Origin: Chitinophaga pinensis
Lineage (GTDB): Bacteria; Verrucomicrobiota; Verrucomicrobiia; Limisphaerales; JAEYXS01
NCBI GenBank assembly: GCA_943367715.1
Contig: CALRJY020000023.1
Coordinates: 23,264-87,263 of the forward strand
Direction: 5' to 3'
DNA length: 64,000 nt
Below, piece by piece: positions 13,586 to 53,798 of the stretch (position 1 is the stretch's first letter; every line of letters starts with the position of its first letter). A model generated the notes under the pieces. It was not told the DNA's origin. It saw only the letters and a program-made list of their open reading frames with translations, and made no database searches. A program made the position numbers and the translations under genes.

Positions 13586-13625
13586 GCGCCCGTAGCTCAG
13601 TTGGATAGAGCATCTGCCTTCTAAG
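13586..13625 (+). pseudogene. tRNA-Arg(UCU) 5' half, truncated after the anticodon loop
   Basis: GCGCCCGTAGCTCAGTTGGATAGAGCATCTGCCTTCTAAG comprises the acceptor 5' strand, D-arm, anticodon-stem 5' strand TCTGC and loop CTTCTAA. The next bases are GTCGA rather than the GCAGA needed to close the stem. I found no T-arm or acceptor 3' strand in the following 400 nt. Confidence 0.7.
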
Positions 13626-35440: not shown

Positions 35441-35544
35441 GGGGCAAGGAAAGGGGTTCACTCGGTGGATTCCTTTTCTTTAGGTATGACCCAGCCGTAT
35501 CCATGTAAGACTGTTCTGGCTGCTTGAGCACCTTCTGCACCGCT

Positions 35545-37343: not shown

Positions 37344-37569
37344 TCGTGCTCACGAGTTAAAGATTCAGTCGAGTAGTGATGGGAGGCGTGTGATCTATTC
37401 AGCGACGTGGCAAGGCAACGTGGCAGGCATCTGCACGACTTATTGGCTAAGGGCGCCCCGCTTTCGCTGTCCTTTTGGTATCGCCTCATAATCGTATCCT
37501 CAGTCCGCTATTCCGGCCTGTCCGCTTTCGGCCGCTTCAAAGCCCCATAGACCCCGTGCAGCAGCAAGT

Positions 37570-40500
37570 TCATACGGGCTCAGCAGAATTTCCAACTTCA
37601 AAGCCGCCTTCCAGGATGAATTTTGTCAGCAGATTCGACGCTCTGATGTTTACCTTGTGTGGCGGGAGCCTTTCACCCGCTAGCGCTTCAAAGTAAGCTT
37701 TGGCTTTATCCTTGTCGATGGTGGCCTTGAGGTCATCAAAGCGTCCGTAGTCGTTCAAGTTTGCTGCGGTCACGTTCGCGTTTATCAACGCAGTCAGCTT
37801 CTCTTCGTCGATGCCGAGGCATTTGACGATGGCCGCCACCTCCTTGTTTTTGGCCTGAGTCTTGTAGTCGTTCAGGTAGTCTCGGAAAGTGCGGTCAGGG
37901 TCGATCTTCACCTCCCCACGCTGGATGTCGTGGAGAAAGATTCCGGCCAGCTTTTGCTCTTCCTGGGAGAGCGAGGCAAACGAGCGGTGCAGGTCAGCCA
38001 GCGTCGTCTCCTTTGCGGCTTGGTCCCCGCTTTGCAGGACTTTGAGATACTTCTGAAAGCGCGAATTCATGTAGTCGGCATCGATCTTGCCGGTATCGCT
38101 CTCGGTGATGTGGCTGTCGATGTCGAAGGGGATGTCGTCGCCGCCACCGCCGCCACCACCGCCGCCGCCGCCGAGTTCTTTGTAGCGCTGGAGGAGCGTC
38201 AGATATTGAAGGTGGGTGATGGTGAGCTGGATTTGCTTCTTCGGCTCTTCACCAAACTCATAAACCGGTTGCTCCCATGTGAACCCCTGGATCTTCGCTG
38301 CTTCCAGGACGGCATTGAACTGGTTGAACTGCTTGGCGAAAGCCGCACACTCGGTAGGATCATCCGGCAGCTTCATGAAATCCGTGATTCCCGCCGCGTT
38401 GAAGATGGCGCTGATCTCGGCAAAAATTGCATTCAGCCGCTCCAGGTTCATCGGCAGACGATCCGCGAAGAGGCCAATTGGTTTGTCGCCAGAATACAGT
38501 TTTACCGCAGCCTCGACGTTCCGTTTCATCGTGTGCGGCTTGCGGTAGTAGCGGATGGTGCCAAAGGGCTTTTCGAGCGGGTGGAACAGACGGTTGGTCC
38601 GGGAAAAAGCCTGGATGATGTTTTCATACTCCAGCAGCTTGTCGAGGTAGAGGGTGTTCACCCATTTCGAATCAAAGCCTGTGAGCATCTGATTGACCAC
38701 AATCAGCAGGTCGAGCCGCTTTTCCGGCTCGGCCTCGATACGGATATACGGCGCTTTATGCGCGAGTCGGGCCGCAAGGTCCTTTTTGAAATGGGCGTGC
38801 GTTCCAAAATCGAACTTCTGCCCGTAGGCGGCGTTATAGTCGGTCAGTATTTCGATCAGCCCGTCCGTCTTGAAGGCAGGATCGCCGCCGCCATCTTCAT
38901 CGCTGATGTTTGGGTCGAAAAGCGCAGTAATTTTGAGCGTGGGGCACTGCGCCTTTATCAGGCGGTAATAGATGATCGCTTCTGGAATGCTGCTGGTGGC
39001 AAAGATAGCATGGAATTTACTGGCTTGGCTCAAAGTTACCCAGTTGTCGGTGATGTCCTGCACGACGGCGTTCCGGTGTTCATCTCGCTCATATTGGGCA
39101 GTAGGCAAGAGGTCCTCAATGCCGGATTGATAGACACCGGCACTATCTCGCTGACCCGCCATCGGCACCTCATTCATGTAGCGGTTGAAGACCTTCTTTT
39201 TCTTCGGGTCGGCCATGGCTTCCGCCACCGTGTCGGCTTTGCACTTCTCAAGGGCAATAGCCTCCCGCAGATCGCGGTCCTTGTAGGTCATCACCTGGTA
39301 GGGATCAAAGCCGAGGACGTTCTTGTCGCGGATGCCGTCGGCGATGCTGTAACGGTGCAACTCATCACCAAAGACATCCGTGGTGGTATTGTCCTTGCGG
39401 ACATTCTCCCTGTGGATGGGCGTGCCGCTGAAGCCGAAGAAGACCGCGCCGGCAAAGCTCTCTTTGATATCGACGAGCATTTCGCCGAAAGTGGAGCGAT
39501 GGCATTCGTCGATGATGAAGACGATGCGCTTGGCCCGCATGGTTTCCAAGTCGTGCGCTTTCAGCCCATCCGCGTCATCCGTGAGTCGGCTCATTTTCTG
39601 GATGGAGGTCACGATCAGCGTATCGGCCGGGTCGGTGCTCTTGAGTTTCTTTACCAGCACGCCGGTGTGTTCCGTGGCCTGCACCTCGTTGCCGTCACCG
39701 GCGAAGTTGCGATACTGTTCCAGTGTCTGCGTGCCCAACTCGATGCGGTCGAGCAGGAAGACCACTTTGTCCGCATCCTTCGAGTTGGCGATGAGTTGCG
39801 CGGACTTGAAGCTCGTCATCGTCTTGCCCGATCCCGTCGTGTGCCAAATGTAGCCGCCGAGGCGGTTCGGATTCTGCCAATCCGTCTTCGCCACCTTGTC
39901 GGAAATGGCGTGCGCGGCGTAGTATTGGTAGCTGCGCATCACCTTCAGCACCCCGTCCGCCTCATCCGCCACGGTGTAGAAACCGATGAGTTGATGCGCC
40001 ATGGGGATGGAGAGGAGATCTTTTGTAAACCTCTTCCAGTCGTTAATCGGTTCGTTGTTAAAGTCCGCCCAGTGAAAGGCGTAGTCCTTATTGAATTTCC
40101 CGTCTGGCCCGGGATTGGCAAAGTAAAGCGCCTCGGCTGGCTCCATCGCCACGAAGATTTGGAGGAGGGAAAAGAGGCCGGTGAAGATGCCCTCGTGAGA
40201 ATACTTCTGGATCTGATTGTAGGCCACCATCACCGGCACACCGCTGCGCTTCAGCTCGAGGTGGATCACCGGCATTCCGTTGATGAGCAGCACCAGATCG
40301 CCTCGCCGGTCATTCTGCAAGGGAGAGCCACGTGCATAGCGCGGTTGCTGCGCGATCTGGTAGCGGCTCTGGCCAGCGGCGATCTCGTGCCGGTCATAGA
40401 TTTTTAGGCTCACTTCCTTGCCGAAGTGTAACGCGTCGACTGGATTGTCGCGGGTAATGGAAACCGTCTTGCCGTTGATGAAGCCATTGAGCCGCAGCGG

Positions 40501-40731
40501 CGTGCGCAGCGCGGTGATTTGCTCCAGTATCTGCTGCATCTCGCCGTCAGTGAGGGGCACTTCATTGAGGCGATCCTTGCCGCGATTGTTTTCAAAGAGG
40601 ATTTGCTTCCAGTTCGCCAGCAGGTCCGCTTCGGTCGGGTTCTTGATGACGGGCAGGTCGCCCCAACCGCGCTGGCGCAGCTCGTGGATCACGGCGCCTT
40701 CAAAATCGGCTTCTTTGGCAAAGGTGTTCAT
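37570..40731 (-). CDS. hsdR: Type I restriction enzyme R subunit
   Basis: WHTTGSGKTMTSF (motif I), FIIDECHRS (DEAH-type motif II), GFSGTPI (motif III), a FSRTNR-type C-terminus, and 1053 aa length. Confidence 0.95.
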   Translation of the reverse strand: MNTFAKEADFEGAVIHELRQRGWGDLPVIKNPTEADLLANWKQILFENNRGKDRLNEVPLTDGEMQQILEQITALRTPLRLNGFINGKTVSITRDNPVDALHFGKEVSLKIYDRHEIAAGQSRYQIAQQPRYARGSPLQNDRRGDLVLLINGMPVIHLELKRSGVPVMVAYNQIQKYSHEGIFTGLFSLLQIFVAMEPAEALYFANPGPDGKFNKDYAFHWADFNNEPINDWKRFTKDLLSIPMAHQLIGFYTVADEADGVLKVMRSYQYYAAHAISDKVAKTDWQNPNRLGGYIWHTTGSGKTMTSFKSAQLIANSKDADKVVFLLDRIELGTQTLEQYRNFAGDGNEVQATEHTGVLVKKLKSTDPADTLIVTSIQKMSRLTDDADGLKAHDLETMRAKRIVFIIDECHRSTFGEMLVDIKESFAGAVFFGFSGTPIHRENVRKDNTTTDVFGDELHRYSIADGIRDKNVLGFDPYQVMTYKDRDLREAIALEKCKADTVAEAMADPKKKKVFNRYMNEVPMAGQRDSAGVYQSGIEDLLPTAQYERDEHRNAVVQDITDNWVTLSQASKFHAIFATSSIPEAIIYYRLIKAQCPTLKITALFDPNISDEDGGGDPAFKTDGLIEILTDYNAAYGQKFDFGTHAHFKKDLAARLAHKAPYIRIEAEPEKRLDLLIVVNQMLTGFDSKWVNTLYLDKLLEYENIIQAFSRTNRLFHPLEKPFGTIRYYRKPHTMKRNVEAAVKLYSGDKPIGLFADRLPMNLERLNAIFAEISAIFNAAGITDFMKLPDDPTECAAFAKQFNQFNAVLEAAKIQGFTWEQPVYEFGEEPKKQIQLTITHLQYLTLLQRYKELGGGGGGGGGGGDDIPFDIDSHITESDTGKIDADYMNSRFQKYLKVLQSGDQAAKETTLADLHRSFASLSQEEQKLAGIFLHDIQRGEVKIDPDRTFRDYLNDYKTQAKNKEVAAIVKCLGIDEEKLTALINANVTAANLNDYGRFDDLKATIDKDKAKAYFEALAGERLPPHKVNIRASNLLTKFILEGGFEVGNSAEPV

Positions 40732-40749
40732 GGGTGAGGCGGGCGACGC

Positions 40750-42021
40750 TTAAACAAACATCTTCTCTAGGCAGGCCGCTTTGACCTGCTTGAGTTTCTG
40801 GAGTTGTAGGGCTTGTTGGAAAATCAACTCGTCCAGCGTGCGGAAGTAGTGGCCGATTTTTTGTTGTTCGGCGATGCCAGTCGGAAAGCAGATGACCGTT
40901 TGCTTGATAGCCGTTTTGGAAATCGAAAGAACTTTCGTGCCCTGCATTATGGGTAGTAACTGAACATGGAAAGCATTCGAGTTAAGGTAGTATCCAAGGT
41001 AGAAGGGCGCGAAACGAGTCAGTGGCCGCAATGCAATCGTGTGAAGGCCTGCGAGCACAATTTGATCGCCCACATTTTGAATCTCTGTGCATTTGCCCAC
41101 GGTTTCATCCTCTGCCGCATCGGCCATCACAATATCTCCATTCTCTAAATTGGAGGACTTCAGTTTCGTCACCACTGCATCCTCCGATATGAATGGCACT
41201 TTATTGCTTTGAACATCCAGCACCTCTCCGTATCGGACCAAAATATCCCCGTAGTGCACGTTCCTCGCCAGGCCGACGCGGTAGTTCAAGTTGGCCCTTG
41301 ATAAGGTGTTATTGGCGATGTTGCTCGTTGAGGCCCCTAGATTCTTCTGCTCCCACGCCCCCCCAAAGCCTTTGAAGCGGATTTCGGGGGTGGTCGTGCC
41401 GGGCTGCGGGAACATCTTTTGGAGCATCGCTTTTTTCAGCGTCACCAGCTTGTCATGATTTCGCTGATGCAGCCCCATCAGCCGATCCACCTCCCTGAAA
41501 TAACCGCAGATTTGGGCTTGTTCGGTGACGCTCGGGATGGTGACACCTCGTTTTTTCCAGTCCTCGACCTCGAAAACCATTTTCTCAATATCCACCCCGT
41601 ATGAACTCAAGAAGAACTTCTTCCGCATGTCTGGAAGAGTCGCGATAAGAGTCATGAACTCAGTCGAAATCCTGCTGTTTCCTACAGCGATGAGGTATTC
41701 ATTGGAGACGATTGCACCATCCAAGTGCGAGGGGATGATTCCAGTGGCACCGTGGATGACTTGCCGCTTGGAAATGACAAAGTCGCCGACCTCAAGCTGA
41801 GAGTAGTTTTTTACCAATATTTCGCGACCCAACAAAGAACCGCGCGGGACAACACCTGCATTCCGCCGCTTCACGGTGATCAGCTCGTAGCGTTGATGAT
41901 CTTTGAGAATGATCGGACGCTTTATCTCAGAAAGGATTTCTCCAATTGGTTTCTCCTCCCAATCCGCTTCAAACCCTTTGAAGCGGATTCTCGGCACCTT
42001 GCTGTTGGTTGGCGGCTTCAT
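40750..42021 (-). CDS. hsdS: Type I restriction-modification S subunit
   Basis: Two target-recognition halves, each introduced by IRFKGFEADWEEKPIGE or IRFKGFGGAWEQKNLG, with conserved helical spacers (LKKAMLQKMF / CLEKMFV). Confidence 0.9.
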   Translation of the reverse strand: MKPPTNSKVPRIRFKGFEADWEEKPIGEILSEIKRPIILKDHQRYELITVKRRNAGVVPRGSLLGREILVKNYSQLEVGDFVISKRQVIHGATGIIPSHLDGAIVSNEYLIAVGNSRISTEFMTLIATLPDMRKKFFLSSYGVDIEKMVFEVEDWKKRGVTIPSVTEQAQICGYFREVDRLMGLHQRNHDKLVTLKKAMLQKMFPQPGTTTPEIRFKGFGGAWEQKNLGASTSNIANNTLSRANLNYRVGLARNVHYGDILVRYGEVLDVQSNKVPFISEDAVVTKLKSSNLENGDIVMADAAEDETVGKCTEIQNVGDQIVLAGLHTIALRPLTRFAPFYLGYYLNSNAFHVQLLPIMQGTKVLSISKTAIKQTVICFPTGIAEQQKIGHYFRTLDELIFQQALQLQKLKQVKAACLEKMFV

Positions 42022-42022
42022 C

Positions 42023-44623
42023 TCAATTCCCGGCGAGTAAGGTTTTCAGTTCCGCGAGCCCCTTGAGATCGAACTCGTTGCCATCCAGTTCATCGATCAT
42101 GTCCGCCAGCGCGGTTTCGGTCTGCTGGATGTCGCGGGCGTTGTCGGCGTAGGTGAGGTGATACTTTTCCGCGAGGGCTTCCAGCTTGCCGATGAGCGTC
42201 TCCATCTGTTGGCCTGGCAGGCGGTGGAGTTCCTCGCTGAAGGGGGTGATCCATTTGCGTTCGAGCAGCTCATGCACTTGCGCGTCGCTCAGGCCCTCGA
42301 TGGTAGCTTTCGTCTTCAGGTGGAGGTCGGCGGCTTCCGCCTTGATAGCGGCTTTCAAAGTCTTCTCCTCGGCCAGCCATGCAGCCACCTGGATGATTTT
42401 AGCCTCGTAAGATTCGGAATCGAACTTGCCGGAGTTTTTCTCCTCCGCGAGCAGCGCCTTCGCTTCCTTGGCGACGGCAGCAGCGACGAACTTCTCGCCT
42501 TCCTCATTAAGCAACTCGCTGGCTATGGCGCTTTCCTTTTCCTCCTCGCTGAAGCCCTCCAGCGTTTCCTCCAGCGAAGCGGTGACTTCACTCAGACGGC
42601 TCTCCTTTTCCCGCAGGGCGGCCAGCTCCGCCTGGTGATGGACGCTCTGCACGAGATCGAAGGGGAGGATGCGCCCTTTCCAGCCGTCCTGCACCTCGGC
42701 CTTTTCCCCCTTGCTGGTCTTCTCCACCATGTTCGGCTCGGCCACACGGGCGGCGGCGAAGCCCTCCGTCTGGAGGATTTCCAGATCAATGGCGACGGGC
42801 TGCCAGTGGTCGTCGAGGATCTGGTAGGCGTGATAGCGGTCGATGAGCGGCAGCGGGGCGAGCCGGGCAAAAAGCGCCTCGCTCAAAACGGCCTCCTGCC
42901 GGGGAATCTGGAGAGTGAGCATCTGCTCCAGCAACTCGCGGCGCAGGTAGGGCGAGAAGTCGGCAAAGGCGGTGCCGAATTTTTCCCCGAATACTTGCAC
43001 CTCGGGATGCTCGCGGATGGCCTTGGCAAGGTCTTCCACCATGGGCTCAGCGTAAGGCTTGCCATCGTCCTTAAAAAGGGCGGAGCGCAAGCTGGGAAAT
43101 GCACGCCAAAAACCAGCCAAGGGGTCGGCATTCAACTCGCTAAGTGGAATACCGCCAAACATAGAGGCGTAAAGATCCCAGCTCTCTGTGGGCTCGGAGG
43201 AATCCACATAACGCGGTATGTTGAGATTGTAGTTGTTCTCCTGGATTTTAGTTTTGGGGACGAGCTTGCTGTAGCGCGGCACAGTAGCGCGGCCAATCAC
43301 GGTATCGGCGATCTTCTTTATGTCGGAGGCGCGTAGCTTGTTGTTCTTCCCCTCCTTGGCGAAGCCCTCGGAGGCATCCACGATTAGGACGTCGCTCGCT
43401 TCCCGCTTCTGCCGGAGGATGAGGATGATGGTGGGGATACCGGTGCCAAAGAAGATATTCGGCGGCAGGCCGATGATGGTCTCCAAGTGGTCGTTCTCGA
43501 TGAGGTTCTTGCGGATCACACCTTCCTCACCCCCCCGGAATAGCACGCCGTGGGGCAGGACGATGGCCATGATGCCGTTCGGCTTCAAGTGATAGAGATC
43601 GTGGAGGAGGAAGGCATAATCGGCCTTGGACTTGGGCGCGAGGCCGAAGCGGGCAAAGCGGGCATCGTTTTCCTTGTGCTGCGGGTCCCACTTCTGCGAG
43701 TAGGGCGGATTGGAAACGACCGCGTCTAGGTAAAGCGGGTTGTAGGTGTTGACGGGGTCCTGATCGTCGAAGAAAGGCCAGTCATCCTCCAGCGTGTCGG
43801 CATTCCGCGTGACTATGTTCGTTGGCAAGATGCCGCGCATGACTAGGTTCATGCGGGTGAGGTTGTAGGTGTTCTCCTTCAGCTCCTGCGCGTAGTAGCG
43901 GATGTTGTCCGGCCTGACCATGTGCCTGGCGATGGACTGGCCGATATTAAGCAGCAGGGAACCCGAGCCGCTGGTGGCGTCATAGATCTGGATAGTCTCA
44001 CGGTCCCGCAGGTGGTGCGCGATGATCTCGGACATGAGCACGGAGACCTCGTGCGGGGTGTAGAACTCGCCCGCCTTCTTCCCCGCATTCGCGGCAAACA
44101 TGCCGATGAGATATTCGTAGATGAAGCCGAGCACATCGTAGCCCTGTCGCCCATCCATGGGGATGTCCTTGATAAGCTGGATGAGCTTGCGGATCGCCTT
44201 AGTCTGATTCGCAGCAGAGTCGCCTAGTTTGCCCAGCCCGGTTTCCAGCGTCTTGAAAATGCCCTCGAACAGGCGCTTGTGATTCGGGTGGATGAGGCGG
44301 CCGAAGGCCGACAGCGCATCCCGGACGTGAGAGACGTCGAAGTCGCCCTTCAGCTCGATCCAAGTGGAGAAGAGATGCGGGTAGGCGATGAAGTAACCGA
44401 TGTTGCTCTTGATGTGGTCCACGGTCTCGGCGTCATCTTCCGACAGGGCACGGAGGTCATCGTCACTAAAGTCCTCGCTCTTGGCGAAACGGACGAGTTT
44501 ATCCGAGAGGTATTTGTAGAAGATGAAGCCCAGGATGTAGTCCTTGTATTCGTTGGCCTCGATCTTCGAGCGCATCTGGTTGGCGGACTCCCAGATTTTA
44601 GCGGCGAGCTGTTGTTTGTTCAC
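42023..44623 (-). CDS. hsdM: Type I restriction-modification M subunit (long form, 866 aa)
   Basis: HsdM N-domain KIWESANQMRSKIEANEYKDYILGFIFYKYLSD. Also GEFYTP, YDATSGSGSLL (motif I) and VVSNPPYSQKW (motif IV). A ~350-aa helical C-terminal extension follows. Confidence 0.95.
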   Translation of the reverse strand: MNKQQLAAKIWESANQMRSKIEANEYKDYILGFIFYKYLSDKLVRFAKSEDFSDDDLRALSEDDAETVDHIKSNIGYFIAYPHLFSTWIELKGDFDVSHVRDALSAFGRLIHPNHKRLFEGIFKTLETGLGKLGDSAANQTKAIRKLIQLIKDIPMDGRQGYDVLGFIYEYLIGMFAANAGKKAGEFYTPHEVSVLMSEIIAHHLRDRETIQIYDATSGSGSLLLNIGQSIARHMVRPDNIRYYAQELKENTYNLTRMNLVMRGILPTNIVTRNADTLEDDWPFFDDQDPVNTYNPLYLDAVVSNPPYSQKWDPQHKENDARFARFGLAPKSKADYAFLLHDLYHLKPNGIMAIVLPHGVLFRGGEEGVIRKNLIENDHLETIIGLPPNIFFGTGIPTIILILRQKREASDVLIVDASEGFAKEGKNNKLRASDIKKIADTVIGRATVPRYSKLVPKTKIQENNYNLNIPRYVDSSEPTESWDLYASMFGGIPLSELNADPLAGFWRAFPSLRSALFKDDGKPYAEPMVEDLAKAIREHPEVQVFGEKFGTAFADFSPYLRRELLEQMLTLQIPRQEAVLSEALFARLAPLPLIDRYHAYQILDDHWQPVAIDLEILQTEGFAAARVAEPNMVEKTSKGEKAEVQDGWKGRILPFDLVQSVHHQAELAALREKESRLSEVTASLEETLEGFSEEEKESAIASELLNEEGEKFVAAAVAKEAKALLAEEKNSGKFDSESYEAKIIQVAAWLAEEKTLKAAIKAEAADLHLKTKATIEGLSDAQVHELLERKWITPFSEELHRLPGQQMETLIGKLEALAEKYHLTYADNARDIQQTETALADMIDELDGNEFDLKGLAELKTLLAGN

Positions 44624-44748
44624 AGTAAAGTTATTGGGAAGATTGTCTTTGGCGTAGGCGTCATTAGGGCGGAATCAATCTAGGGTTTCCAGTCCAAAGC
44701 CTTCCGTCAGCAAGCAACTCGCATTGCTGTCCTTCGGTTTGTCCGCTT

Positions 44749-44924
44749 TGTTCCTGCCGCTCATCATCGGAATATACCTGCATGTAACAGGGGGATTCTC
44801 CTTTCATTGGTCCAGGTACACAGACCTCCCTCGGACTTTCCCCCCAATGAACCCACCGTCTGAGGTAAACGGTGAACTCGTGTCGTGATTTAAGGCAAAC
44901 CACGCCCCGTTGCAACCCTAATGA
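44749..44924 (-). repeat. Copy 1 of the ~175-bp repeat (upstream of hsdM)
   Basis: Aligns by hand to 49135-49307 over its whole length, at roughly 85% identity (my estimate, with a few 1-3 nt gaps). The flanking sequence is unrelated. Confidence 0.85.
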
Positions 44925-44937
44925 AAGCAAACCCCTT

Positions 44938-45020
44938 CTACTCAAGGAAACCACCGGCAAAGCCTCGCTCGCCGAACCAGCTAAGAGCAGCGTTCTCCAA
45001 AGTGGATTTAGTAACGCTAA
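44938..45020 (-). pseudogene. Relic of an hsdR 5' end (about 25 codons)
   Basis: The minus-strand translation ...TKSTLENAALSWFGERGFAGGFLE* resembles the conserved HsdR N-terminus (sE..lE.aal.wf..lGy). It runs straight into repeat copy 1. Confidence 0.45.
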
Positions 45021-45026
45021 TAGGTT

Positions 45027-46940
45027 TTACACTGTGATTCCCATTTCTGTGAGGAAGCGTGATGGAGCCTTCGCATATCCGAAGTATCGGCCAGAAAACG
45101 TAAGTGTCAGTGCCTCTTCGGCTCGGGTTATCGCCACAAAGCAATTCCGACGCTCCTCCCTCATCTCAAAACTTTCGTCACCCTTCTTCGTGGCCGCCCA
45201 ACTCGGAAGCTGGTCCTCAACCAAACCGATGAGATAAACACGTTTGAACTCCAAGCCCTTCGAACTGTGGATGGTCAGGCAGCGAACAGCATCTTTAGGA
45301 GGCGGCGTCTCCTTCGAGCGGAGATCAAACTCTTGAAGCAGAGAGTGAAGGCTTACTTCGCTTTTGCCATACTGCTGAATCACCTCCTGCTGCAACAATT
45401 TCCAGACTTCCTTCTCTTCCTGATACTCGTCAAACGCGGTATCAACAGCAGTGGGGTGGTTCTGGAGTGCATCAATCCACGAGAAAGCGGCTTCGATGAA
45501 TGCCCAGTGGTCAACTCGCTCAAGCAGAGTGCTCTTAGTCTGTTCAAGAAATGCTCGCGTAATATCTGAAATGGTTTCCTGCCCAAGTGCAGCTTCAAGC
45601 CAGCCCCGCAAGTAGTCCCCACTTTGGAATGAAGACGATGCCACCACATCCTCCACCCTGATATTGTTTCCCTCGAGTGAGTAAAAAGCCTTGCAAACCT
45701 TTCGGAGTTGCTCCCGGTCCTGCCGTGCGTTCGCAAGTCGAAGTGCGGCGTGCAGCCAAGAAACTGGCGCACTGATGAACTGACTTTTCCGCACGGCGAT
45801 GTATGCAGGGACGCTTTGCTGCGTGCACTCGGCAATCACAGCGTCCAAAAGTTTCTTACTCCGCCCAAGAACCACACAGTCGTTCCGGCCTTCTGGCGGC
45901 GTCTGCTTCAACTCGGAAACGACCCACGAGACTTCTTGACCGAAATCATCAAAATGAAAAACCCTCAAATGCGAGTCGGTCGTTGAGATTTTATGCGCTT
46001 TGAGGGGCTCCTTACCCACAGAACGGTCAAGGTTATGTCTTATCAAATTGTTGGCCAATTCGATAACTGCGGGCGGGCAGCGGTAGTTCTCTGGTAATTG
46101 AACTGTCGCCATCGAGAAGCGTTTCAGTAGATCCTGAAGGCGTTGGGGGTTTGCACCGTTCCATTGGTAAATCAGCTGATCGTCATCAGCCACGACGAAC
46201 AAATTCGGCCTGTCCGCTGGAACAAGCGAGCAGAGGAGTCGGAATTGTGTTTCGTTGGTATCCTGAAACTCGTCGACACACACGTATCGATAGACACGCT
46301 GGAACTGTTTCGCAATTGCTGGTCGCTCTTCCAGAAGTTGAACGGCCATACCGATGAGCGAAGCAAAATCCAAGTGGTTTCCTTTGATAAGCTCAGCACG
46401 GTAAGAATTGAACAGTTGTGACAGAAATTCTTTCCGCTGATGCCCACCCAACCTCTCGGCCAGTTCTTGCGGGTTGGAACATTCTGCAAGCATCTTGTCA
46501 ATTACCGGCAATGCGTTTGCTGCTCCTGATATTGTATCTGCGACATCCTCACTGAGCATTTTCATCGCTTCGGTGGCGACTGCTTCACGGTCCGCCTGCT
46601 CGACCAAGATCGTAAAGTCTGGCCTCAGTCCAATGTGATGCCCATGCTGCCGCAGGATCTCGGCAGCGAATGAGTGGAAGGTCGTTAACAGCGCCCTGTC
46701 CTTTCCTGAGTTCAAAAGTGCCTCAAGTCGGGTTCGCATTTCCCCTGCGGCCTTGTTGGTGAACGTTACTCCAAGTACTCGGAAACGCTCGCCGTCGGTA
46801 TCGTCGAGAAGCCGTGCGATGCGATAAGTCAGCACGCGGGTCTTTCCCGAACCAGGGCCGGCCAGCACAAGCAATGGTCCCTCGTTCCATCGCACGGCTT
46901 CAAGCTGTTTCTCATTAAGCGTTGTAAGGTCGATACTCAT
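45027..46940 (-). CDS. gajB: UvrD/PcrA-like SF1 helicase, Gabija GajB
   Basis: VLAGPGSGKTRVLTYRIA (Walker A), TFTNKAAGEM and VCVDEFQDTN. The start overlaps the stop of the OLD-family gene by 4 nt. Confidence 0.8.
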   Translation of the reverse strand: MSIDLTTLNEKQLEAVRWNEGPLLVLAGPGSGKTRVLTYRIARLLDDTDGERFRVLGVTFTNKAAGEMRTRLEALLNSGKDRALLTTFHSFAAEILRQHGHHIGLRPDFTILVEQADREAVATEAMKMLSEDVADTISGAANALPVIDKMLAECSNPQELAERLGGHQRKEFLSQLFNSYRAELIKGNHLDFASLIGMAVQLLEERPAIAKQFQRVYRYVCVDEFQDTNETQFRLLCSLVPADRPNLFVVADDDQLIYQWNGANPQRLQDLLKRFSMATVQLPENYRCPPAVIELANNLIRHNLDRSVGKEPLKAHKISTTDSHLRVFHFDDFGQEVSWVVSELKQTPPEGRNDCVVLGRSKKLLDAVIAECTQQSVPAYIAVRKSQFISAPVSWLHAALRLANARQDREQLRKVCKAFYSLEGNNIRVEDVVASSSFQSGDYLRGWLEAALGQETISDITRAFLEQTKSTLLERVDHWAFIEAAFSWIDALQNHPTAVDTAFDEYQEEKEVWKLLQQEVIQQYGKSEVSLHSLLQEFDLRSKETPPPKDAVRCLTIHSSKGLEFKRVYLIGLVEDQLPSWAATKKGDESFEMREERRNCFVAITRAEEALTLTFSGRYFGYAKAPSRFLTEMGITV

Positions 46941-48685
46941 AGTCGCGCGTTATTTACGGCAGTGGAGATCACGGTTTGAATTTCCGGGGGCAAGCCAGGG
47001 GAACCCTGCTGTCCAGCTGCTTCTATGACCGCAACTGCAAGGTGCGGCTTTGAGGTGCGCTTTATTGCTCGCTTTATGGTCTGGGCAATTGGGTCCGGCG
47101 GTGGTGGAGGCGTCTCCCATAGGCAAGGCTGCCCGTTCGCACATTGTTTCGGCGGTGGAGGCGTTTGCTGAGGAGCATTACCGGCAGCAGTAGTGTAAAC
47201 CTGACTGTATCCATGGTGCCAAAAACTGTGCTCAATATCCTTCTGTGGAAGGACTGAGATTCGCCGAGCTTCCAGCACACCACCCAAAAAGGTGCGAGCG
47301 GTCGCCGCATACCCGATTCCTGCTGTGTCGCCGTCTGCAAGAACGTGCCATTCAATGCCAAGGTCTATCGCGAGCTTGATAAGCGTCGGCAGTCCGCACT
47401 GAGCAAACTCAACACAGCACACGCCTTCCAATTCGAAATCCGTGCCAAGTAATCTTGCGGCTTCAGGTAGAATCCAAAACTCACTCTCTCCTTCCACAAG
47501 TAGCCACGATTTGGCGAAGAGGAGATTCCCGCGCTTGGCGCGAACGTGGTATGCAATCTTGCGTTCGTCATCAGCCGTGAGGGTTCCCGTTTTCACTTGG
47601 AACAATTCAACCTTCCCGGCTTTACGAGCGAGGCGGCGAACCGAACTCAGCGGGACAGCGGCGAGTAATTCACCAGAATGTGTCGCGATAATCTTTTGGC
47701 CCTTGATTGAGTTCAACACCCTCCACAAAGAACGCACAGCCGACGGGTGTAGATGCGACTCTGGTTCTTCAATCGCGAGGAGTGGTTCGGAATCCGGGTC
47801 GTATGCTTCGGCCAGCCGCGCATTGAGAAACGCTTGAAAAAGGAATAAGACGGAAAGACTTTGGGTTCCAGCGCCATGCTGGGTGATCGGCAACTTTGCT
47901 CCGCTTTTCGCTGCAAGCTTCACTTGCGTCTTACTGAGCATGTCGAAAATGCGTGCGGGAATGGCCTCAACACTTACGAGGTCAGCCGCAGCCAAAGGAA
48001 CCAGACCACCAGCCTTCGCCACTTGCGTTTTCACCTCGTTAAACGGCGTATGTGAGTCGAGGACAGATTGATTGATTGCTTCAATCTGCTCTTCCAGTTG
48101 GACACGGGTTGCGTCATCGATCTGCGGATTCTTCGTAAACGGCCCCCAAAACGGGGAACGACTTTGGAAATGCTGGCCAGCATCCCTGACCGCCGCCAAA
48201 AAAAACGCGGGATTCAGTTGTTGAAGCTCAGCAACGATTCGCGGGTTCTTTGCCGTAGTAAGTTCGGCGTTATTGAGGTCACGAAACGACCATTCCAAGG
48301 TAAAATCCTTGATCATCGGGTCATATGAGGCAACGACGTGAAACCGTACTTCCTGTCTGTTATCAGCTCGAACCTGCACCGCTCTTTCAAGGCCCTGCAC
48401 GATTGCATCCGGCCATTCGCTTTCAACCGATTCGACAAAGGTAAAGTCTATTTCTATGGGTGGTGCAGAACTCGGGTCTGGCTTGGCTGCCGTAAGGTGG
48501 AAGTCATACTCCCCGAAAGGCACGACCTTGCGTGACAAGTTTCGGCTTAAGCAGGTGTGAACAGCTTCCAAGACACTGGTCTTGCCGGTATTGTTTTCGC
48601 CGATCAGAACGGTGCACTGTTCCAAAGGGATTGTAAGCTCGTCGATTCCTCGAAAGTTCTTGATGGAGAGTTTGGTCAGTAACAT
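46937..48685 (-). CDS. gajA: OLD-family ATPase-TOPRIM nuclease, Gabija GajA
   Basis: ABC-ATPase N-terminus LSIKNFRGIDELTIPLEQCTVLIGENNTGKTSVLEAV, signature/Walker B LLAIEEPESHLHP, and C-terminal TOPRIM LLVEGESEFWIL...WHVLADGDTAG. The OLD + UvrD pairing defines the class-2 OLD/Gabija arrangement. Confidence 0.85.
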   Translation of the reverse strand: MLLTKLSIKNFRGIDELTIPLEQCTVLIGENNTGKTSVLEAVHTCLSRNLSRKVVPFGEYDFHLTAAKPDPSSAPPIEIDFTFVESVESEWPDAIVQGLERAVQVRADNRQEVRFHVVASYDPMIKDFTLEWSFRDLNNAELTTAKNPRIVAELQQLNPAFFLAAVRDAGQHFQSRSPFWGPFTKNPQIDDATRVQLEEQIEAINQSVLDSHTPFNEVKTQVAKAGGLVPLAAADLVSVEAIPARIFDMLSKTQVKLAAKSGAKLPITQHGAGTQSLSVLFLFQAFLNARLAEAYDPDSEPLLAIEEPESHLHPSAVRSLWRVLNSIKGQKIIATHSGELLAAVPLSSVRRLARKAGKVELFQVKTGTLTADDERKIAYHVRAKRGNLLFAKSWLLVEGESEFWILPEAARLLGTDFELEGVCCVEFAQCGLPTLIKLAIDLGIEWHVLADGDTAGIGYAATARTFLGGVLEARRISVLPQKDIEHSFWHHGYSQVYTTAAGNAPQQTPPPPKQCANGQPCLWETPPPPPDPIAQTIKRAIKRTSKPHLAVAVIEAAGQQGSPGLPPEIQTVISTAVNNARL

Positions 48686-48739
48686 GGCGGTTAGGTCTCA
48701 AGTGTTACGCTCCCCGCGCAGCAGGGTGGCGGGGCATTG

Positions 48740-49105
48740 TTAATCAAGGCCAACATACTTTTTGGCGGCGGCTTCGAGCAAGGCATTGATGACTGCCACG
48801 CTGGTTGAAAGGCCCTTTTCCTCAGCTTGGGCCATTACCTTCTTCCACAGCGTATCGTTCTTTGCTTTGGATAAAAACTCCTGCCCCGCCCAAGTCATGC
48901 GGTAGACCACACAGGCCACCGGCTCGTTTCTACTACCAGTCTGGATTAGGCCATCAAGGAAATCGGCATCCAACAGCAGTTGGACATGTTCCAGTATCTC
49001 CACCTGCTCCTTGCCCTCGTATTCAAACCCATCAATAGCTTGGCCCGCCGGCGTCGCTTCCACATCCATTAGGATGTTACGGATGAGATCAAGGTCGCGC
49101 TTCAT
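48740..49105 (-). CDS. DUF2513 (winged-helix-like) protein
   Basis: MKRDLDLIRNILMDVEA... is the typical DUF2513 N-terminus. 121 aa, 54 nt upstream of gajA. Confidence 0.7.
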   Translation of the reverse strand: MKRDLDLIRNILMDVEATPAGQAIDGFEYEGKEQVEILEHVQLLLDADFLDGLIQTGSRNEPVACVVYRMTWAGQEFLSKAKNDTLWKKVMAQAEEKGLSTSVAVINALLEAAAKKYVGLD

Positions 49106-49134
49106 GATTGAGATTACGATAGTCTCTTGAGAGG

Positions 49135-49307
49135 TGTTCCTGTCCGCTCATCATCGGTACATATGTGCATGTGACAGGGGATTCTCCATTCATCGGTGCA
49201 GGTACACAGACCTCCCTCGGTTTCCCCCAAAGAACCCACCGCTTAAGGCCAACGGTGAACTCGTGCCGTGATTTAATCCAAACCTAGCCCCGTTGCAACC
49301 CTAATGA
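49135..49307 (-). repeat. Copy 2 of the ~175-bp repeat (upstream of DUF2513-gajAB)
   Basis: See copy 1. The shared core includes GGTACACAGACCTCCCTCGG and CCCCGTTGCAACCCTAATGA. Confidence 0.85.
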
Positions 49308-49640
49308 GCGGCCGGGTTCTCGGCTCGAAGATGCGGCTATCAGAATAGATCGGCTTCGTCGCCTCATCCGCCACCGTGCGCTGGATGTCGTAGATGGAAA
49401 TGTAATCACCGAAGACCGCCCGCGTGTTCGCGTCCGTCTTCTCGATCGGCGTGCCGGTGAAGCCGATGAACGACGCATTCGGCAAGGCATCGCGCAGGTT
49501 CTGGCGAAGCCGTAGGACATCTCGCCGGTCTTCTCATTCACCTTGCCGCCGAATCCATACTGGCTGCGGTGCGCTTCATACGCGATCACGACAATGTTCT
49601 GCCGCCCGCTCAGCTCGGGCATCGCTCTCAGCGCAATGTT
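49308..49640 (-). pseudogene. Internal fragment of a second hsdR (frameshifted, truncated at both ends)
   Basis: Two overlapping frames read [20 protein letters not shown]... and [47 protein letters not shown], which are HsdR helicase motifs II-III. The reading frame is lost on entering repeat copy 2. Confidence 0.75.
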
Positions 49641-49646
49641 ATGAAT

Positions 49647-52600
49647 TCATAATGCTGTGACAGACCACGCCCGAAGACCTTCATAACTAAATCCAAGGTA
49701 AAAAGAAACGCGCCTGTTCTCATCACGCCCAAGAGCCATGCCAGCGACAGCCGGAGCGAAAAATGCCTTAACACCCCACCTCAGTTCAATTTCTCCTGAT
49801 TGTGGGGCGTGGATTCGACTCACAACCCCTTCGATTCGAAGAAGGGGCTTAGTATCTAGCCAAAATCCCGTCGAGTCATCCCATCCTCCCAGTTGGTCTT
49901 GATGAACAAGCCGGCGTAGTCCTTGCCCGCCTCCGAGCCACTCGAAACTTCGCGTGCGATCGCGTCGGAACCCTGCTTTCGCTTTGCAAATTTCGATGTT
50001 CCGCTGAGCATCATTCGCAGCAATTGCAGAACCGTCGAGCGCCTCAAGCATCTTTAGAACATATAGATAGTAGCTTGCGTCGAGGGAGTCCCCTCGCGTC
50101 CGCCACGTGGCGACCCGATCCGCCGCCAATGCTAGTGTTGGCGGCGGAAAGAGGAATCGAGCTCCTTGCAACCAAAGTCGTATGTTTCGGTCTTCATTCG
50201 GCTCCTGTTGGATATTCTCCTCTAGGAGAGTCAGCGATCGCTGAAGATGCTTCGGTGACAGTTTTTGCCATTGCCGCTCACACCTTGCAAGTTGTAGCCA
50301 GACAATCTGCCGCCGGATGGGTGGCGCATGCACTAGTGACTGGCCATTTGCTCCCTTCCGCTGCAACAACTGGTCCCAAAGTTGCAGAGCCTGATCGTGA
50401 GCACCATAAAGAACATTCAACTCAGCACGGCATTTGTCTTCATGCTCGCTTGGCGGTTCGCCGCGGCGCTGTTCTCGCACGGTTCCAAGTAGGTTTTCGA
50501 TTCTTTCGAAGCCTTCCATTAACCAAGGGTCGGTGTTTTCCTTTGCCAGAACCAATACAGCATCCTGCCCACTTCGGGCATAGTCCAACACACGAAGCAT
50601 AGTCTGCGCCTCTGCGATGTAACCATACTCGTCATCGGGCGCTAAACGTCGTGCTTCGCCAAAGCTCTCGGTCGCACGTTTTGCTGCGGCTACGACTGTG
50701 CTGACGGACTCCTTCTCGCCGATCATCTGGAAAGCGAGGTTTCTAAGCGCCATGCCCTTCATGTGATGGAGCACATGATCATCCTCGCTCAGACTAATTG
50801 CCTGATTGATCGCTTTCTCAGCACTTCCGAAATCCTTTCTCTCTATTGAGTGATAACGACCCAAGTGGGCCCAGAAATGCGGGTTCTCTGGGAAGACCTC
50901 GACCAAATGCTCAAACAGCCTCAATTTCGCATCAGTGGTTGGGAGATCACTGACCAAGCGGGAGAAACGGTTCTCGCCGGCAGCCGCACCACTCAACAAC
51001 TCAGCATCGTTGCGGCGAACGCATACTTGTTCGATGACGCCTTGCAAATCTTCAGGTGGGACAGGCTCATTAGTGCGACAGAAATCCACGAACTGCCGCG
51101 CTAAATCACTAAGTTGCATCTTCCAAAGACGTTTGTCGCTGCTTTCGGTGCTCAATGTCAGCTCAAGAATCTCAGTGCTCACAAGTTGGTGGACTGGCCT
51201 CCAGCAACCGCCGCCTTGTTCTATCAGTAGCCCGCGAGCTTCGTTGCAGAGAACCTTGCCAAAGTCCACTGGCCGAGTCGGCGGCAACTGAAGGTGCTCA
51301 GCAAAATGGGCCGCCGCCAAAGCCTGTTGACCGTAGTCATACGAGAGAGCCAAAAACTGCAGAACCCTGATTTGAGGAGCAGGCAGCTGTGAAAGATGGT
51401 TTTGCACATAAGACGTCAAACCAGTGAATTCGGCAGCAAAAGCCGTAAGTCCAAAGAGGAAAGGAGTCCGTGTAGAAGTCGGGACCGCTGCTAGCAGTGC
51501 GAGTTGATGTTTGCGAGTTGGTGCTTCTCTCTCATAGGAAGCGCGGAACCGTTCGGTCTCCGCAGTGGAGAGCTGTGCTCGCAGAAAGATACTGCGTTTA
51601 CCAGCATTAGGAGGTTGGTAGCGGCGCAAAACTTGGAGCAAAACACAAGGGACATGTTTGCTGGCTAAGAGGTTTGCCAACTGGTCTGCTTCGTTCTCCG
51701 GCACGTCACTGCCTTCTCGGAGAACCAAGACTGCTTGCCCCGTTAGCTGGTAAACAAAAGCAATCCGCTCCACGGTTTCGCGAGCCGAACATCGACGAAG
51801 GACTACGGTTGGATAACGCTGATGCAAAACCCAGAGAATACGGCGCGCAATCGTAGAGCCACCCGCACCAGGTTCGTGATAGAGGTTGATACGAGTTGAT
51901 CCACGTTGTCCAAGGTCTTGCTCAACCATGCGCAGCAGTTCAGCGGTCTTTTCCCGCTCGACATCAGCTTGCAACCCCAGATCAAACCAACTGATTTGAC
52001 CTCCGCGAAGAAAGTCTCGCATTGGATCAATCCCCGCAGGGGCACGTGTCCCAGCACTGATATGGACCAGTTCTAAATCTTCATCAAGGTATGCAAAGTT
52101 CTCTCCTGAAATGTCTTTTGGAACACCGCCAACACCCGGCAACTGAACAACATTCTCAATCCCCATCTGAGCTGCGCGAGCTTGAGCGGCCAGCCCATCA
52201 AGGAAATTGCCAATACTCATCGGGAACAGGGTTGCCAATTCCTGCTGCTCCAGCGTGTTCCATTGGTCTGCCGCCCCCGAAACCGCCACACAAGTGGCAC
52301 GCTCACCGAAATTGGTTACAAGATCTTCAAATAGTTTCCGCACAATCAATACGCGGTTGGGACTTTCGCATAAGGCCAAAATCGAGACTGGGCCATTGCA
52401 CCCACCAGCAAGTTGTTCAATTTTCAGTGCTGTCGGTTTGCCATACTTCGCGACCCAATCCTTAAACTTGAGTTCTGATACCAAGTCAGCGGCAACTTGT
52501 TGCCCATTCGCGAAATACCAAGAGGTTGTCCTGCCGACGTCGCCAAGCATCTTCCCTTCCGGGGTAACGACATGCAACGCCCGCCGCCCGGAAAGGTGTT

Positions 52601-53348
52601 CGCGAAAATGCTTGAGTGCACCAGATATCTGACTAGCTGGGTCTAGATCGATAACCATGCTCCAATCAATAGCTGTCAAGTTCGCTAGATCTGCTTTCTT
52701 GGCAGTTTCATCGAGCGCTAGAATGAGAACGTGGTGGCAGTTGCGGCTAGCCAACTGAGTAAGTTCCACAATCTGAGTCCACGCCTGTTCGGGAGGGAAC
52801 TGTAGAGGTTGGAGCGACTGACCTTGCTGGAACCATTTCCAGATAGCGGACTGCTCGCCTGGGCCGGCCTCTTCGTTGCTCGAATCTCGACGACAATATA
52901 AAGCGTGTTTTCTCAAAAGGGGCTTCACTGTTCCATCCGCTCCGCCCACGTCTTTGCTTGCAAAAAAAGGCCCGATTGATCTGTCGGGAGGAATTACTAT
53001 CACCCCGTATTGCAGGCCGTTAAGTTCTGCCTGGTCATAGTGAAAACGAGGACACGGATGAATTAGCCCGTCAAGTGCTTGGATAAGATATACCCCGTCG
53101 AGGTGCTCTGAAACACCAGGCGCATGTATCTTCCCATCCGGCAAGCGCTGAACCCCGATTACAATGTATCGAGGCTCATCACGCCACAGGTTGGCGAACG
53201 CCAAAATATCCTTCGCAAACTTCGCCCGCTTTCGCTCTTTCGTTTTAGAATCGTCTCCAGGTTCGCCCAAGTCGTAAGGCTGCAATTTGAAATCGAGCAC
53301 ATCAGACTCACAACGCTCAAGCAATTGGGACAGTGTTTCTGGATTCAT
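49647..53348 (-). CDS. 1233-aa AlbA_2/Schlafen-like N-terminal domain - STAND-like NTPase module - C-terminal TPR-like repeats
   Basis: The N-terminus ESDVLDFKLQPYDLG...FAKDILAFANLWRDEPRYIVIGV resembles the AlbA_2 (Schlafen-type) domain. The central RINLYHEPGAGGSTIARRILW is a P-loop-like segment without the Walker A lysine. The C-terminal third has TPR-like helical repeats (FWAHLGRYHSIERKDFGSAEKAINQAISL...). Confidence 0.75.
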   Translation of the reverse strand: MNPETLSQLLERCESDVLDFKLQPYDLGEPGDDSKTKERKRAKFAKDILAFANLWRDEPRYIVIGVQRLPDGKIHAPGVSEHLDGVYLIQALDGLIHPCPRFHYDQAELNGLQYGVIVIPPDRSIGPFFASKDVGGADGTVKPLLRKHALYCRRDSSNEEAGPGEQSAIWKWFQQGQSLQPLQFPPEQAWTQIVELTQLASRNCHHVLILALDETAKKADLANLTAIDWSMVIDLDPASQISGALKHFREHLSGRRALHVVTPEGKMLGDVGRTTSWYFANGQQVAADLVSELKFKDWVAKYGKPTALKIEQLAGGCNGPVSILALCESPNRVLIVRKLFEDLVTNFGERATCVAVSGAADQWNTLEQQELATLFPMSIGNFLDGLAAQARAAQMGIENVVQLPGVGGVPKDISGENFAYLDEDLELVHISAGTRAPAGIDPMRDFLRGGQISWFDLGLQADVEREKTAELLRMVEQDLGQRGSTRINLYHEPGAGGSTIARRILWVLHQRYPTVVLRRCSARETVERIAFVYQLTGQAVLVLREGSDVPENEADQLANLLASKHVPCVLLQVLRRYQPPNAGKRSIFLRAQLSTAETERFRASYEREAPTRKHQLALLAAVPTSTRTPFLFGLTAFAAEFTGLTSYVQNHLSQLPAPQIRVLQFLALSYDYGQQALAAAHFAEHLQLPPTRPVDFGKVLCNEARGLLIEQGGGCWRPVHQLVSTEILELTLSTESSDKRLWKMQLSDLARQFVDFCRTNEPVPPEDLQGVIEQVCVRRNDAELLSGAAAGENRFSRLVSDLPTTDAKLRLFEHLVEVFPENPHFWAHLGRYHSIERKDFGSAEKAINQAISLSEDDHVLHHMKGMALRNLAFQMIGEKESVSTVVAAAKRATESFGEARRLAPDDEYGYIAEAQTMLRVLDYARSGQDAVLVLAKENTDPWLMEGFERIENLLGTVREQRRGEPPSEHEDKCRAELNVLYGAHDQALQLWDQLLQRKGANGQSLVHAPPIRRQIVWLQLARCERQWQKLSPKHLQRSLTLLEENIQQEPNEDRNIRLWLQGARFLFPPPTLALAADRVATWRTRGDSLDASYYLYVLKMLEALDGSAIAANDAQRNIEICKAKAGFRRDRTRSFEWLGGGQGLRRLVHQDQLGGWDDSTGFWLDTKPLLRIEGVVSRIHAPQSGEIELRWGVKAFFAPAVAGMALGRDENRRVSFYLGFSYEGLRAWSVTAL

Positions 53349-53369
53349 AGGGTTTAATTCAAAGTGTGT

Positions 53370-53654
53370 TTATATACGGGGGCGCGGTCAATGAGCGTGC
53401 CAATTTTCCGGGCGTCGATGAAGAGGGTCTGCTGGCGGCGGTCGCGGAAGCCGCGTTTGGCGGCGGCGGCTTTGTTCGTCTTTGCGGAACCAGTTGGAGT
53501 CTTTGAAGGGCGGGTAAGCAAGGAAGTGGTCGGTGTGCTGATCTGGATTAAGGTTGCGCTGCGTGTGCGCCATCAGCCAGTGCTTGGCTTCAAAGCCAAA
53601 ATTGGCGGGTTCAATGCCTGCTGTTTTACGTCCCATAGCGGTAAAGCTTTCCAA
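53370..53654 (-). pseudogene. Relic hsdM (N-terminal ~50 codons joined, out of frame, to a C-terminal piece)
   Basis: One frame reads GIEPANFGFEAKHWLMAHTQRNLNPDQHTDHFL (HsdM_N-like, degenerate). Another frame reads RDRRQQTLFIDARKIGTLIDR, which is the conserved HsdM C-terminal block (vLFIDArk.gt..dR). Confidence 0.55.
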
Positions 53655-53798
53655 GCTAAATAGCTATTTCAGCTTGCAACAACAAGCCTCCATTTTCTAA
53701 AGAGTGGCAAATCCACCCTCATGTCCGTTGTGGTCAACGCGGTTTGCCAGCAAGCAATAGTTTGGCAGACAGATCAAGGCCGGGTTGCTCAATCTGAG

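Follow-up and report, generated by a model that had tools for sequence, protein, structure and literature searches.

A repeat of about 175 nucleotides (nt) occurs twice in a 64,000-nt stretch of Verrucomicrobiota DNA (the window), each time directly upstream of a group of defence genes. We consider it fairly probable that the repeat is a rearrangement scar: a fragment of the leader of hsdM2, the first gene of a type I restriction–modification (R-M) system, which would have been duplicated and left in place by the turnover of defence cassettes in a decayed type I slot. It most likely represents neither a new RNA nor a mobile element nor a recombination site. The window is part of contig C23 of a 6.29-Mb assembly of 76 contigs (G000), and eight genus genomes including G000 were compared. 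Two of them are central to the argument: G004, an uncultured Verrucomicrobiota metagenome-assembled genome whose locus (L004) lies on its contig C3, and G007. Coordinates without a prefix are those of the window, and the genes, relics and repeat copies given in them all lie on the minus strand.

Two copies of a probable leader fragment

Copy A (44749-44926) covers 178 nt in the interior of the hsdM2 leader, a non-coding stretch of ~320 nt, and is orthologous to L004:9875-10044. Copy B (49135-49309) appears to be a secondary, partial copy of the same leader, joined on its 5′ side to a mid-gene relic of another hsdR gene (hsdR1) and ending on its 3′ side 29 nt before a DUF2513 gene. The remaining 3′ part of the leader (44624-44748) occurs only with copy A and in G004, where the two versions are 68% identical and differ by large indels; copy B lacks it.

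Aligned with MAFFT and a repeat finder, the two copies are identical at 152 of 174 positions (87%), with five gap columns. BLASTN against the whole assembly pairs them at 85.9% over 177 columns with E = 2.6e-51, so the repeat is far beyond chance, and neither copy finds a third on the 76 contigs. The differences are evenly spread, the longest identical run is 22 nt, and the sequences flanking A and B are mutually unrelated. The first-pass annotation of the window, which had reported a ~175-bp repeat present twice at ~85% identity between unrelated flanks, was right in all these respects. It was also right in placing an operon shortly after each copy: the GTG start of hsdM2 (44623) lies 125 nt after A, and the ATG of the DUF2513 gene (49105) lies 29 nt after B. 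The gene identities that it gave are confirmed by Pfam and PADLOC.

A third copy (79% identity) is found in G004, directly upstream of the orthologous hsdM. Only these two of the eight genus genomes carry hsdM2 and the repeat; it was not found in the six others. A covariance model run over 400 order-level genomes recovers no further copy, its lone extra match (G299) being an ordinary terminator hairpin that aligns to the central hairpin of the repeat only. Pattern scans of genome collections and of Joint Genome Institute (JGI) metagenome and viral contigs add no copy to that of G004; five metagenome matches were discarded as chance matches within GC-rich coding regions. BLAST of plasmid and phage collections finds no copy. 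In a search of sequencing runs, the locus is present only in the window's own source run, a DNA run, and a match in a soil run covers conserved helicase motifs only. The copy-number check that the first-pass annotation had called for, by BLASTN against the genome and its relatives, comes down to two sites in G000 and one orthologous site in G004.

This distribution bears on the proposal that the repeat is the scar of a small non-autonomous element, a miniature inverted-repeat transposable element (MITE) or the end of an insertion sequence (IS), inserted twice. The repeat is a discrete unit of ~175 nt with internal hairpins, and its ends pair weakly (TCATTAGG with CCGATGATGA). However, there are only two copies in 6.3 Mb, the plasmid and phage collections give no match, and among relatives the only copy is at the orthologous site of G004. 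The edges show no convincing terminal inverted repeat, no other or inverted occurrence of the terminal 18-mer within three mismatches and no target-site duplication. Moreover, the homology between A and G004 does not stop at the 3′ edge but continues through the leader. A terminal inverted repeat is also lacking at the far end of the hsdM2–CBASS block (CBASS, cyclic-oligonucleotide-based antiphage signalling system). We find an element of this kind scarcely credible.

An open frame of 98 codons (44664-44960) spans copy A. The frame is broken in copy B and shifted by indels in G004. The first-pass annotation had noted stop codons in the translated frames of both copies, which holds for B, whereas A lies within the open frame. 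By a hand count on the alignment, the A/B differences before the first indel fall 3/3/4 on the three codon positions, with no third-position excess. A coding relic was rejected as an explanation because the substitutions are spread over codon positions and the frame is shifted in G004. The repeat is non-coding; it may still be an old piece of a pseudogene, though no evidence for this was found.

A type I operon decayed around the repeat

On the minus strand, the genes run in the order lexA, an imuB–dnaE2 fusion, a 1233-residue STAND/Schlafen-like gene, an hsdR relic, copy B, the DUF2513 gene, gajA and gajB, followed by an hsdR 5′ stub, copy A, hsdM, hsdS, hsdR, a CBASS cyclase and a four-transmembrane (4TM) effector. 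In G007, the corresponding place holds an intact series of dnaE2, hsdM1, hsdS1, three embedded genes and a 1049-residue hsdR1, with neither hsdM2 nor the repeat. The hsdM1 and hsdR1 pieces of G007 map colinearly onto the variable regions of G000 and G004. Judged from these gene orders, the arrangement in G007 must be the ancestral state.

Four relics of the ancestral operon remain in the window. The first is the hsdR1 5′ stub with its spacer (44927-45021), which starts directly after the gajB stop codon and consists of residues 1-24 (45021-44950) and ~23 nt of spacer. The second is the mid-gene relic of hsdR1 (49310-49640; residues ~408-505), which includes motifs II-III, is frameshifted and travels with the STAND/Schlafen-like (Avs9-like) cassette; within it, 49622-49330 matches residues 414-500 of G007 HsdR1 at 79-83% amino acid identity, with a frameshift. 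The third is the 3′ end of hsdR1 (35513-35569; residues ~1024-1042 of the G007 gene), a 57-nt piece, 93% identical, that closely follows the CBASS effector in G000 as well as in G004 and marks the far edge of the material replacing the middle of hsdR1. The fourth is a shredded hsdM1 relic (53384-53747), pieces of which match residues 1-68, 296-341 and 441-462. Given these relics and the mapping of the G007 genes, the leader, hsdM2, hsdS2, hsdR2 and CBASS genes occupy the place of the hsdR1 middle. When measured against G007 HsdR1, each copy of the repeat follows a dead hsdR piece as the first-pass annotation had stated, B following the relic of residues 414-500 and A the stub of residues 1-24.

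G000 and G004 are colinear over 22817-44928 and again from 53553. Between these blocks, G000 has 8.6 kb and G004 has 6.75 kb with different defence genes. The variable region of G004 contains KwaA and KwaB (Kiwa), a different Gabija and a GT2-like open reading frame (ORF), and no DUF2513 gene. The start of hsdR1 stands directly after gajB in both genomes, yet the two gajA–gajB pairs are unrelated in DNA. The place between hsdS1 and hsdR1 therefore has the form of a type I R-M-embedded defence slot, a position between hsdS and hsdR whose content varies between genomes: three genes in G007, DUF2513 and Gabija in G000, and Kiwa and another Gabija in G004.

Divergence of the copies

With G004 as outgroup, the private changes number 11 in A, 9 in B and 24 in G004. 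A and B are thus sisters relative to G004 and have diverged equally fast, indicating that B was copied after the split of G000 and G004. The repeat of A differs from that of G004 at 21.8% of positions, compared with 20.2% at the four-fold sites of the adjacent hsdM2. Both copies appear to have drifted at about the neutral rate, with no sign of strong constraint in a three-copy comparison of low power.

The block downstream of the repeat has a mixed history. It comprises hsdM2 (42023-44623), the first gene of an intact type I system, hsdS2 (40750-42021), an EcoR124-type hsdR2 (37570-40731), the CBASS cyclase (36471-37343) and the 4TM effector (35545-36507). Over 35545-44623 in the window and 715-9765 in L004, four-fold differences between G000 and G004 fall from 20% in hsdM2 to 12.6% in hsdR2. 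For the cyclase and the effector, which are nearly identical in the two genomes, the values are 0% and 2.4%. This gradient along the block points to a recombination mosaic with recent exchange of the CBASS end between the lineages.

The 5′ edge of the repeat

The similarity of all three copies begins at the same TCATTAGG edge, beside three different neighbours. Taken alone, this would suggest a discrete site with a recurrent breakpoint at TCATTAGG, a reading rejected on the colinear alignment of the hsdR1 stub of G004. In G004, residues 1-19 of hsdR1 directly follow gajB, and the stub is split at about codon 19 by a 1.08-kb insert (L004 10086-11165) with a 364-codon ORF, which has a weak GT2 match at residues 43-111 only. 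After the insert, the stub resumes (TGCCAATGGCCAC versus TGCCATTGGACAC in G007) at the expected position, ~25 nt before the repeat. The colinear order of stub, ~22-nt spacer and repeat suggests a single ancestral junction common to A and G004. Therefore, the junction between A and the hsdR1 stub is probably one ancestral event shared with G004, and the 5′ edge of B is most simply read as a one-off joint ~22 nt inside that leader.

Short duplicated joints are found elsewhere in the slot. In G004, the Kiwa cassette is bracketed by two ~60-nt copies of the 3′ end of hsdS1 (L004 ~16484-16555 and 14866-14934), which are 88-94% identical to the hsdS1 tail of G007. This pair suggests that such duplicates are a general by-product of cassette stacking in this slot.

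Defence cassettes travel without the repeat

The modules that adjoin the repeat recur in other genomes, and the repeat is absent beside every other instance found of gajA–gajB, hsdM2 and the Avs9-like gene. The pair gajA (46937-48685) and gajB (45027-46940) recurs at 82-84% DNA identity in unrelated contigs (84% to one of them over 48691-45020). The homology stops within a few bases of the ORF ends, and the matching contigs have neither the DUF2513 gene nor the repeat.

The DUF2513 gene (48740-49105) encodes 121 residues. In other type I loci (L042, L043), homologues commonly occupy the place between hsdS and hsdR, again without the repeat, and DUF2513 is frequently the first gene of the cassettes embedded there. 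An AlphaFold model of the protein (predicted local distance difference test, pLDDT, 85) resembles winged-helix regulators of the PadR type (Foldseek E = 7e-3, template modelling score ~0.45-0.5), predicting a PadR-like fold. A sequence search against the PDB gave a spurious PPR match only. No literature on the function of DUF2513 was found apart from one incidental mention.

HsdM2 (860-866 residues) has 80-86% protein identity to homologues in Verrucomicrobia, Gammaproteobacteria and Betaproteobacteria (L044, L045, L046). At the DNA level, the homology is 87-94% over the first ~125 nt (44502-44627); it starts with the GTG and does not extend into the upstream regions, which are unrelated. By these matches, the hsdM2 system is an unusually conserved and widely transferred type I system.

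The Avs9-like gene (49647-53348) lies in a cassette (49639-53493) that is found at 88-90% DNA identity in L048, L049 and L050, with the same upstream hsdM1 relic ending near residue 463. In L049 and L050, the cassette also has a downstream hsdR1 relic, which starts at about residue 393, gives way to other sequence at residue 437 and is not followed by the repeat. The cassette, which thus recurs with both hsdM1 and hsdR1 relics at its flanks, apparently spreads as an allelic form of a decayed type I locus. Since the hsdR1 relic ends at residue 437 in L049 and L050, the junction of hsdR1 residue 505 with copy B is a one-off. Taken together, the comparisons assign the repeat to no travelling module and show that its origin is local.

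The cassettes also bear on whether the repeat is a recombination or cassette-exchange site, one of the roles that the first-pass annotation had proposed. As a site of cassette capture or site-specific recombination, it would be analogous to attI/attC or to the attachment sites of tandem island accretion. The Gabija cassette is bracketed by two direct copies, the three copies share one 5′ edge, and the island resides on an integrative element with a tyrosine recombinase. However, that integrase, the only recombinase on the element, is located at the tRNA-Arg end, ~17 kb past copy B, and the attachment site of the element is a perfect 45-bp repeat of the tRNA, and no serine recombinase or resolvase was found in the genome. 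The copies have no long identical core, only the 22-nt run. The repeat is absent from other instances of the three cassettes, from six of the eight genus genomes, from the 400 order-level genomes and from plasmids, phages and viral contigs, and the other joints in the slot use different sequences, namely the hsdS1 tail and the hsdR1 start. With the colinear stub in G004, the 5′ edge is not a recurrent breakpoint either. A recombination site is very improbable in our view.

Hairpin, promoter signals and a regulatory role

The tests on structure and neutrality used copies A, B and the G004 copy. The first-pass annotation had suggested a structured RNA. A cmscan of 40000-54000 at E ≤ 1 gives no Rfam match on either copy, the sole match in that interval being a chance one to PYLIS_3 inside gajA. 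Folds of the whole repeat are no better than those of shuffled sequences on either strand (z = -0.5 to +0.95), and in the sense strand RNAalifold detects no pair with compensatory changes. The covariation score does not rise above controls (0.106 versus 0.086 for shuffles, with 158 of 500 shuffles as high), and pairs changed on both sides number 2 versus 1.4 expected. Only the central hairpin stands out, and a structured RNA is not supported. This is close to the outcome that the annotation had named as counting against its own reading: the sites are limited, there is no covariation, and the repeat is a partial duplicate of one hsdR-proximal leader segment.

The central hairpin comprises 31 nt with a stem of 12-13 base pairs. 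In copy A (44849-44879), it has 13 pairs including G-U pairs and no U-tract after it; copy B (49232-49262) retains the stem, with four of its private substitutions located within or beside the loop. The predicted energies in A, B and G004 are -12.4, -12.3 and -11.1 kcal/mol. The hairpin is stronger as sense-strand RNA because several of its pairs are G-U. The claim that changes fall in loops while stems are kept therefore stands for this hairpin, whose stem is present in all three copies. It fails for a second helix (TTCATTGG/CCAATGAA), which has an uncompensated mismatch in B, is lost in G004 and is not picked by RNAalifold. The central hairpin does not have the form of an intrinsic terminator, being followed by AUUGGGG, UUUGGGG or UUGGGGG with no U-tract. 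A terminator scan flags only copy B, weakly, and its site count equals that of shuffles.

A promoter scan finds no sense-strand site in either copy at the tool threshold. Near the 5′ end of A and B are hexamers (TTGCAA-16-TTAAAT) that match 8 of 12 positions of the sigma-70-type consensus, which may not be that of the phylum. In G004, which has an intact hsdM2, these candidate hexamers have decayed to TTGCTT and TTACAT.

A motif GGGTT-N5-GGGG occurs twice in the repeat, ~65 nt apart (copy A, 44907-44918 and ~44842-44856), and at the same places in B and G004. Both units read GGATT in G004, a concerted change with an estimated chance probability of ~0.1. The pair could mark a protein-binding direct repeat. 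A LexA-box-like motif (TGTTC-N4-GAACA) was rejected, since inspection by eye shows no more than a half-site at the 3′ end.

These features raise the possibility of a selected regulatory leader, a promoter and/or a stem-loop in the 5′ untranslated region, that was duplicated after the DUF2513–Gabija cassette had lost its promoter with the destruction of hsdM1 and hsdS1. The PadR-like DUF2513 protein or another factor would then co-regulate Gabija and the type I system. In keeping with this, both copies are sense-oriented and lie directly upstream of an operon, B 29 nt and A 125 nt before its first gene, and both have the hexamers. The G-U-bearing hairpin is specific to RNA and to one strand and is present in three of three copies, with the changes of B in its loop; the paired GGGTT motif and the PadR-like model of DUF2513 fit as well. 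There is also a precedent in RptR, a small repressor that acts on promoter repeats of a type I operon in which defence genes are embedded (PMC12255303). As at the RptR operator regions, a small gene whose product probably binds DNA is the first in the cassette, and a repeat-bearing non-coding region lies just upstream. In contrast to that system, DUF2513 (121 residues) is unrelated to the 79-residue RptR, and G004 keeps the repeat at a locus that has no DUF2513 gene. Other observations argue against a selected leader. The divergence equals the synonymous rate and is equally fast in A and B, there is no sense-strand promoter call, the hexamers have decayed upstream of an intact hsdM2 in G004, and covariation is not above controls. 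We regard a selected leader as rather unlikely. That the repeat is a portable leader, copied before an orphaned cassette so that Gabija and the type I R-M system share one control region, perhaps read by DUF2513, is improbable. If it were true, a portable leader would give defence islands a means of rewiring how captured cassettes are expressed.

The first-pass annotation had also offered a shared promoter or leader. Such a role is possible, as one sense-strand hairpin is kept and copy B lies 29 nt before a PadR-like gene. Overall, its interpretation is partly supported.

Several points weigh against the reading of the repeat as a scar. The tests of covariation and neutrality are weakly powered because only three copies are available. 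The central hairpin has z = -2.3 to -2.8 in all three copies. Four of the nine substitutions private to B fall in or next to its loop, and clustering of this kind is the pattern expected from selection on the stem. The 125-nt leader beside the repeat is more diverged (32%, plus indels) than the repeat itself (22%), which hints at mild constraint on the repeat. The homology of the G004 stub is the weakest link of the argument and has modest support: the similarity of the 40-nt flank has p = 0.024, uncorrected for the four lengths tried, and the continuation of the stub rests on ~20 nt, with p = 0.13 by local alignment alone. If the stub homology were not real, breaks would have occurred two or three times at the TCATTAGG edge, in favour of a discrete site. 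Finally, neither an allele without copy B nor a donor of the exact joint between hsdR1 (505) and the repeat was found, and for that reason the order of events given below is inferred, not observed.

A possible history of the slot

The comparison with G007 shows that the original state was a single operon, hsdM1–hsdS1–[embedded genes]–hsdR1, beside imuB/dnaE2 on a tRNA-Arg element. Before G000 and G004 separated, the leader, hsdM2, hsdS2, hsdR2 and CBASS took the place of the middle of hsdR1, leaving the 5′ stub and the 3′ relic. On the reading that the repeat is a scar, an Avs9-like allele flanked by hsdM1 and hsdR1 relics would have recombined into the G000 lineage after the split. Its left end may have joined by homology, and its right end, at about residue 505 of hsdR1, may have joined illegitimately to the DUF2513–Gabija cassette. 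At that joint, a 175-nt patch would have been copied from the leader 4.2 kb downstream. Copy B might since serve as a leader or promoter for DUF2513–gajA–gajB by co-option. If Gabija proves to be driven or regulated by the copied leader, the slot would offer an instance of promoter capture in the stacking of cassettes.

Three routes to the patch are conceivable. Template switching may have produced a templated insertion; a 4.4-kb tandem duplication may have left the patch as its joint and been overwritten on the left afterwards; or a segment may have circularised and integrated in the Campbell manner. Templated insertions are found at rearrangement junctions as products of template switching of the type known as fork stalling and template switching (FoSTeS) or microhomology-mediated break-induced replication (MMBIR). 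Copy B is similar in being a short patch from a template a few kilobases away, at the joint of hsdR1 residue ~505 and the region upstream of DUF2513. It differs in that tandem duplication followed by overwriting would fit equally well.

Defence genes embedded between hsdS and hsdR of type I operons have been described (Payne et al., bioRxiv 10.1101/2024.01.29.577857; the RptR–DarTG2 island, PMC12255303), and the hsdS–hsdR site has been called a potential recombination hotspot (PMC12255303). The present locus is similar in that unrelated cassettes occupy the hsdS1–hsdR1 slot of G007, G000 and G004 and that DUF2513 homologues occupy the same slot elsewhere. Unlike in the described systems, the host operon has decayed to relics, and a second type I system and CBASS have replaced the middle of hsdR1. 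The repeat, too, is not part of the described systems and would be a by-product of turnover.

A second parallel is provided by the effector–immunity modules of the Vibrio cholerae type VI secretion system, for which one study describes sequential displacement that builds gene arrays and invokes homology-facilitated illegitimate recombination (PMC5361080; for the recombination process, also PMC3240628). The present slot would similarly combine a homologous anchor at one end with an illegitimate join at the other, and it has short stubs that recur, namely the repeat, the hsdS1 tails and the hsdR1 stubs. In contrast, its cargo is phage defence, what was duplicated is a non-coding leader instead of a gene end, and the mechanism would be read from the layout alone.

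The repeat by itself matters little, being a lineage-restricted and roughly neutral duplicate; the comparative history of the slot is more useful. In the comparison of three congeners, the conversion of a type I R-M operon, itself on an integrative element, into a landing pad for defence genes can be read unusually well. The joints left behind are the hsdS tail, the hsdR start, the hsdM and hsdR relics and the duplicated leader, and the cassettes are trimmed tightly to their ORFs and recur across phyla. This layout supports a view in which such slots would be rebuilt by recombination at short conserved anchors and by illegitimate joins, and not by a dedicated recombinase.

The integrative element

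An integrative element of ~53.6 kb at a tRNA-Arg gene encloses the entire defence island together with the SOS polymerase genes. The element shows the marks of a tRNA-associated element. The tRNA-Arg(TCT) gene is at C23:90433-90509, and a tyrosine integrase gene (~89.3-90.4 kb) has a PF00589 match at C23:89267-89695. A perfect 45-bp direct repeat of the 5′ part of the tRNA gene bounds the element at C23 36844-36888 (window ~13581-13625) and 90428-90472. Elsewhere in G000, a second tyrosine integrase and a second imuB–dnaE2 fusion (73% amino acid identity) lie ~55 kb apart at C7:120170-176431. This pair may belong to a second element of the same family.

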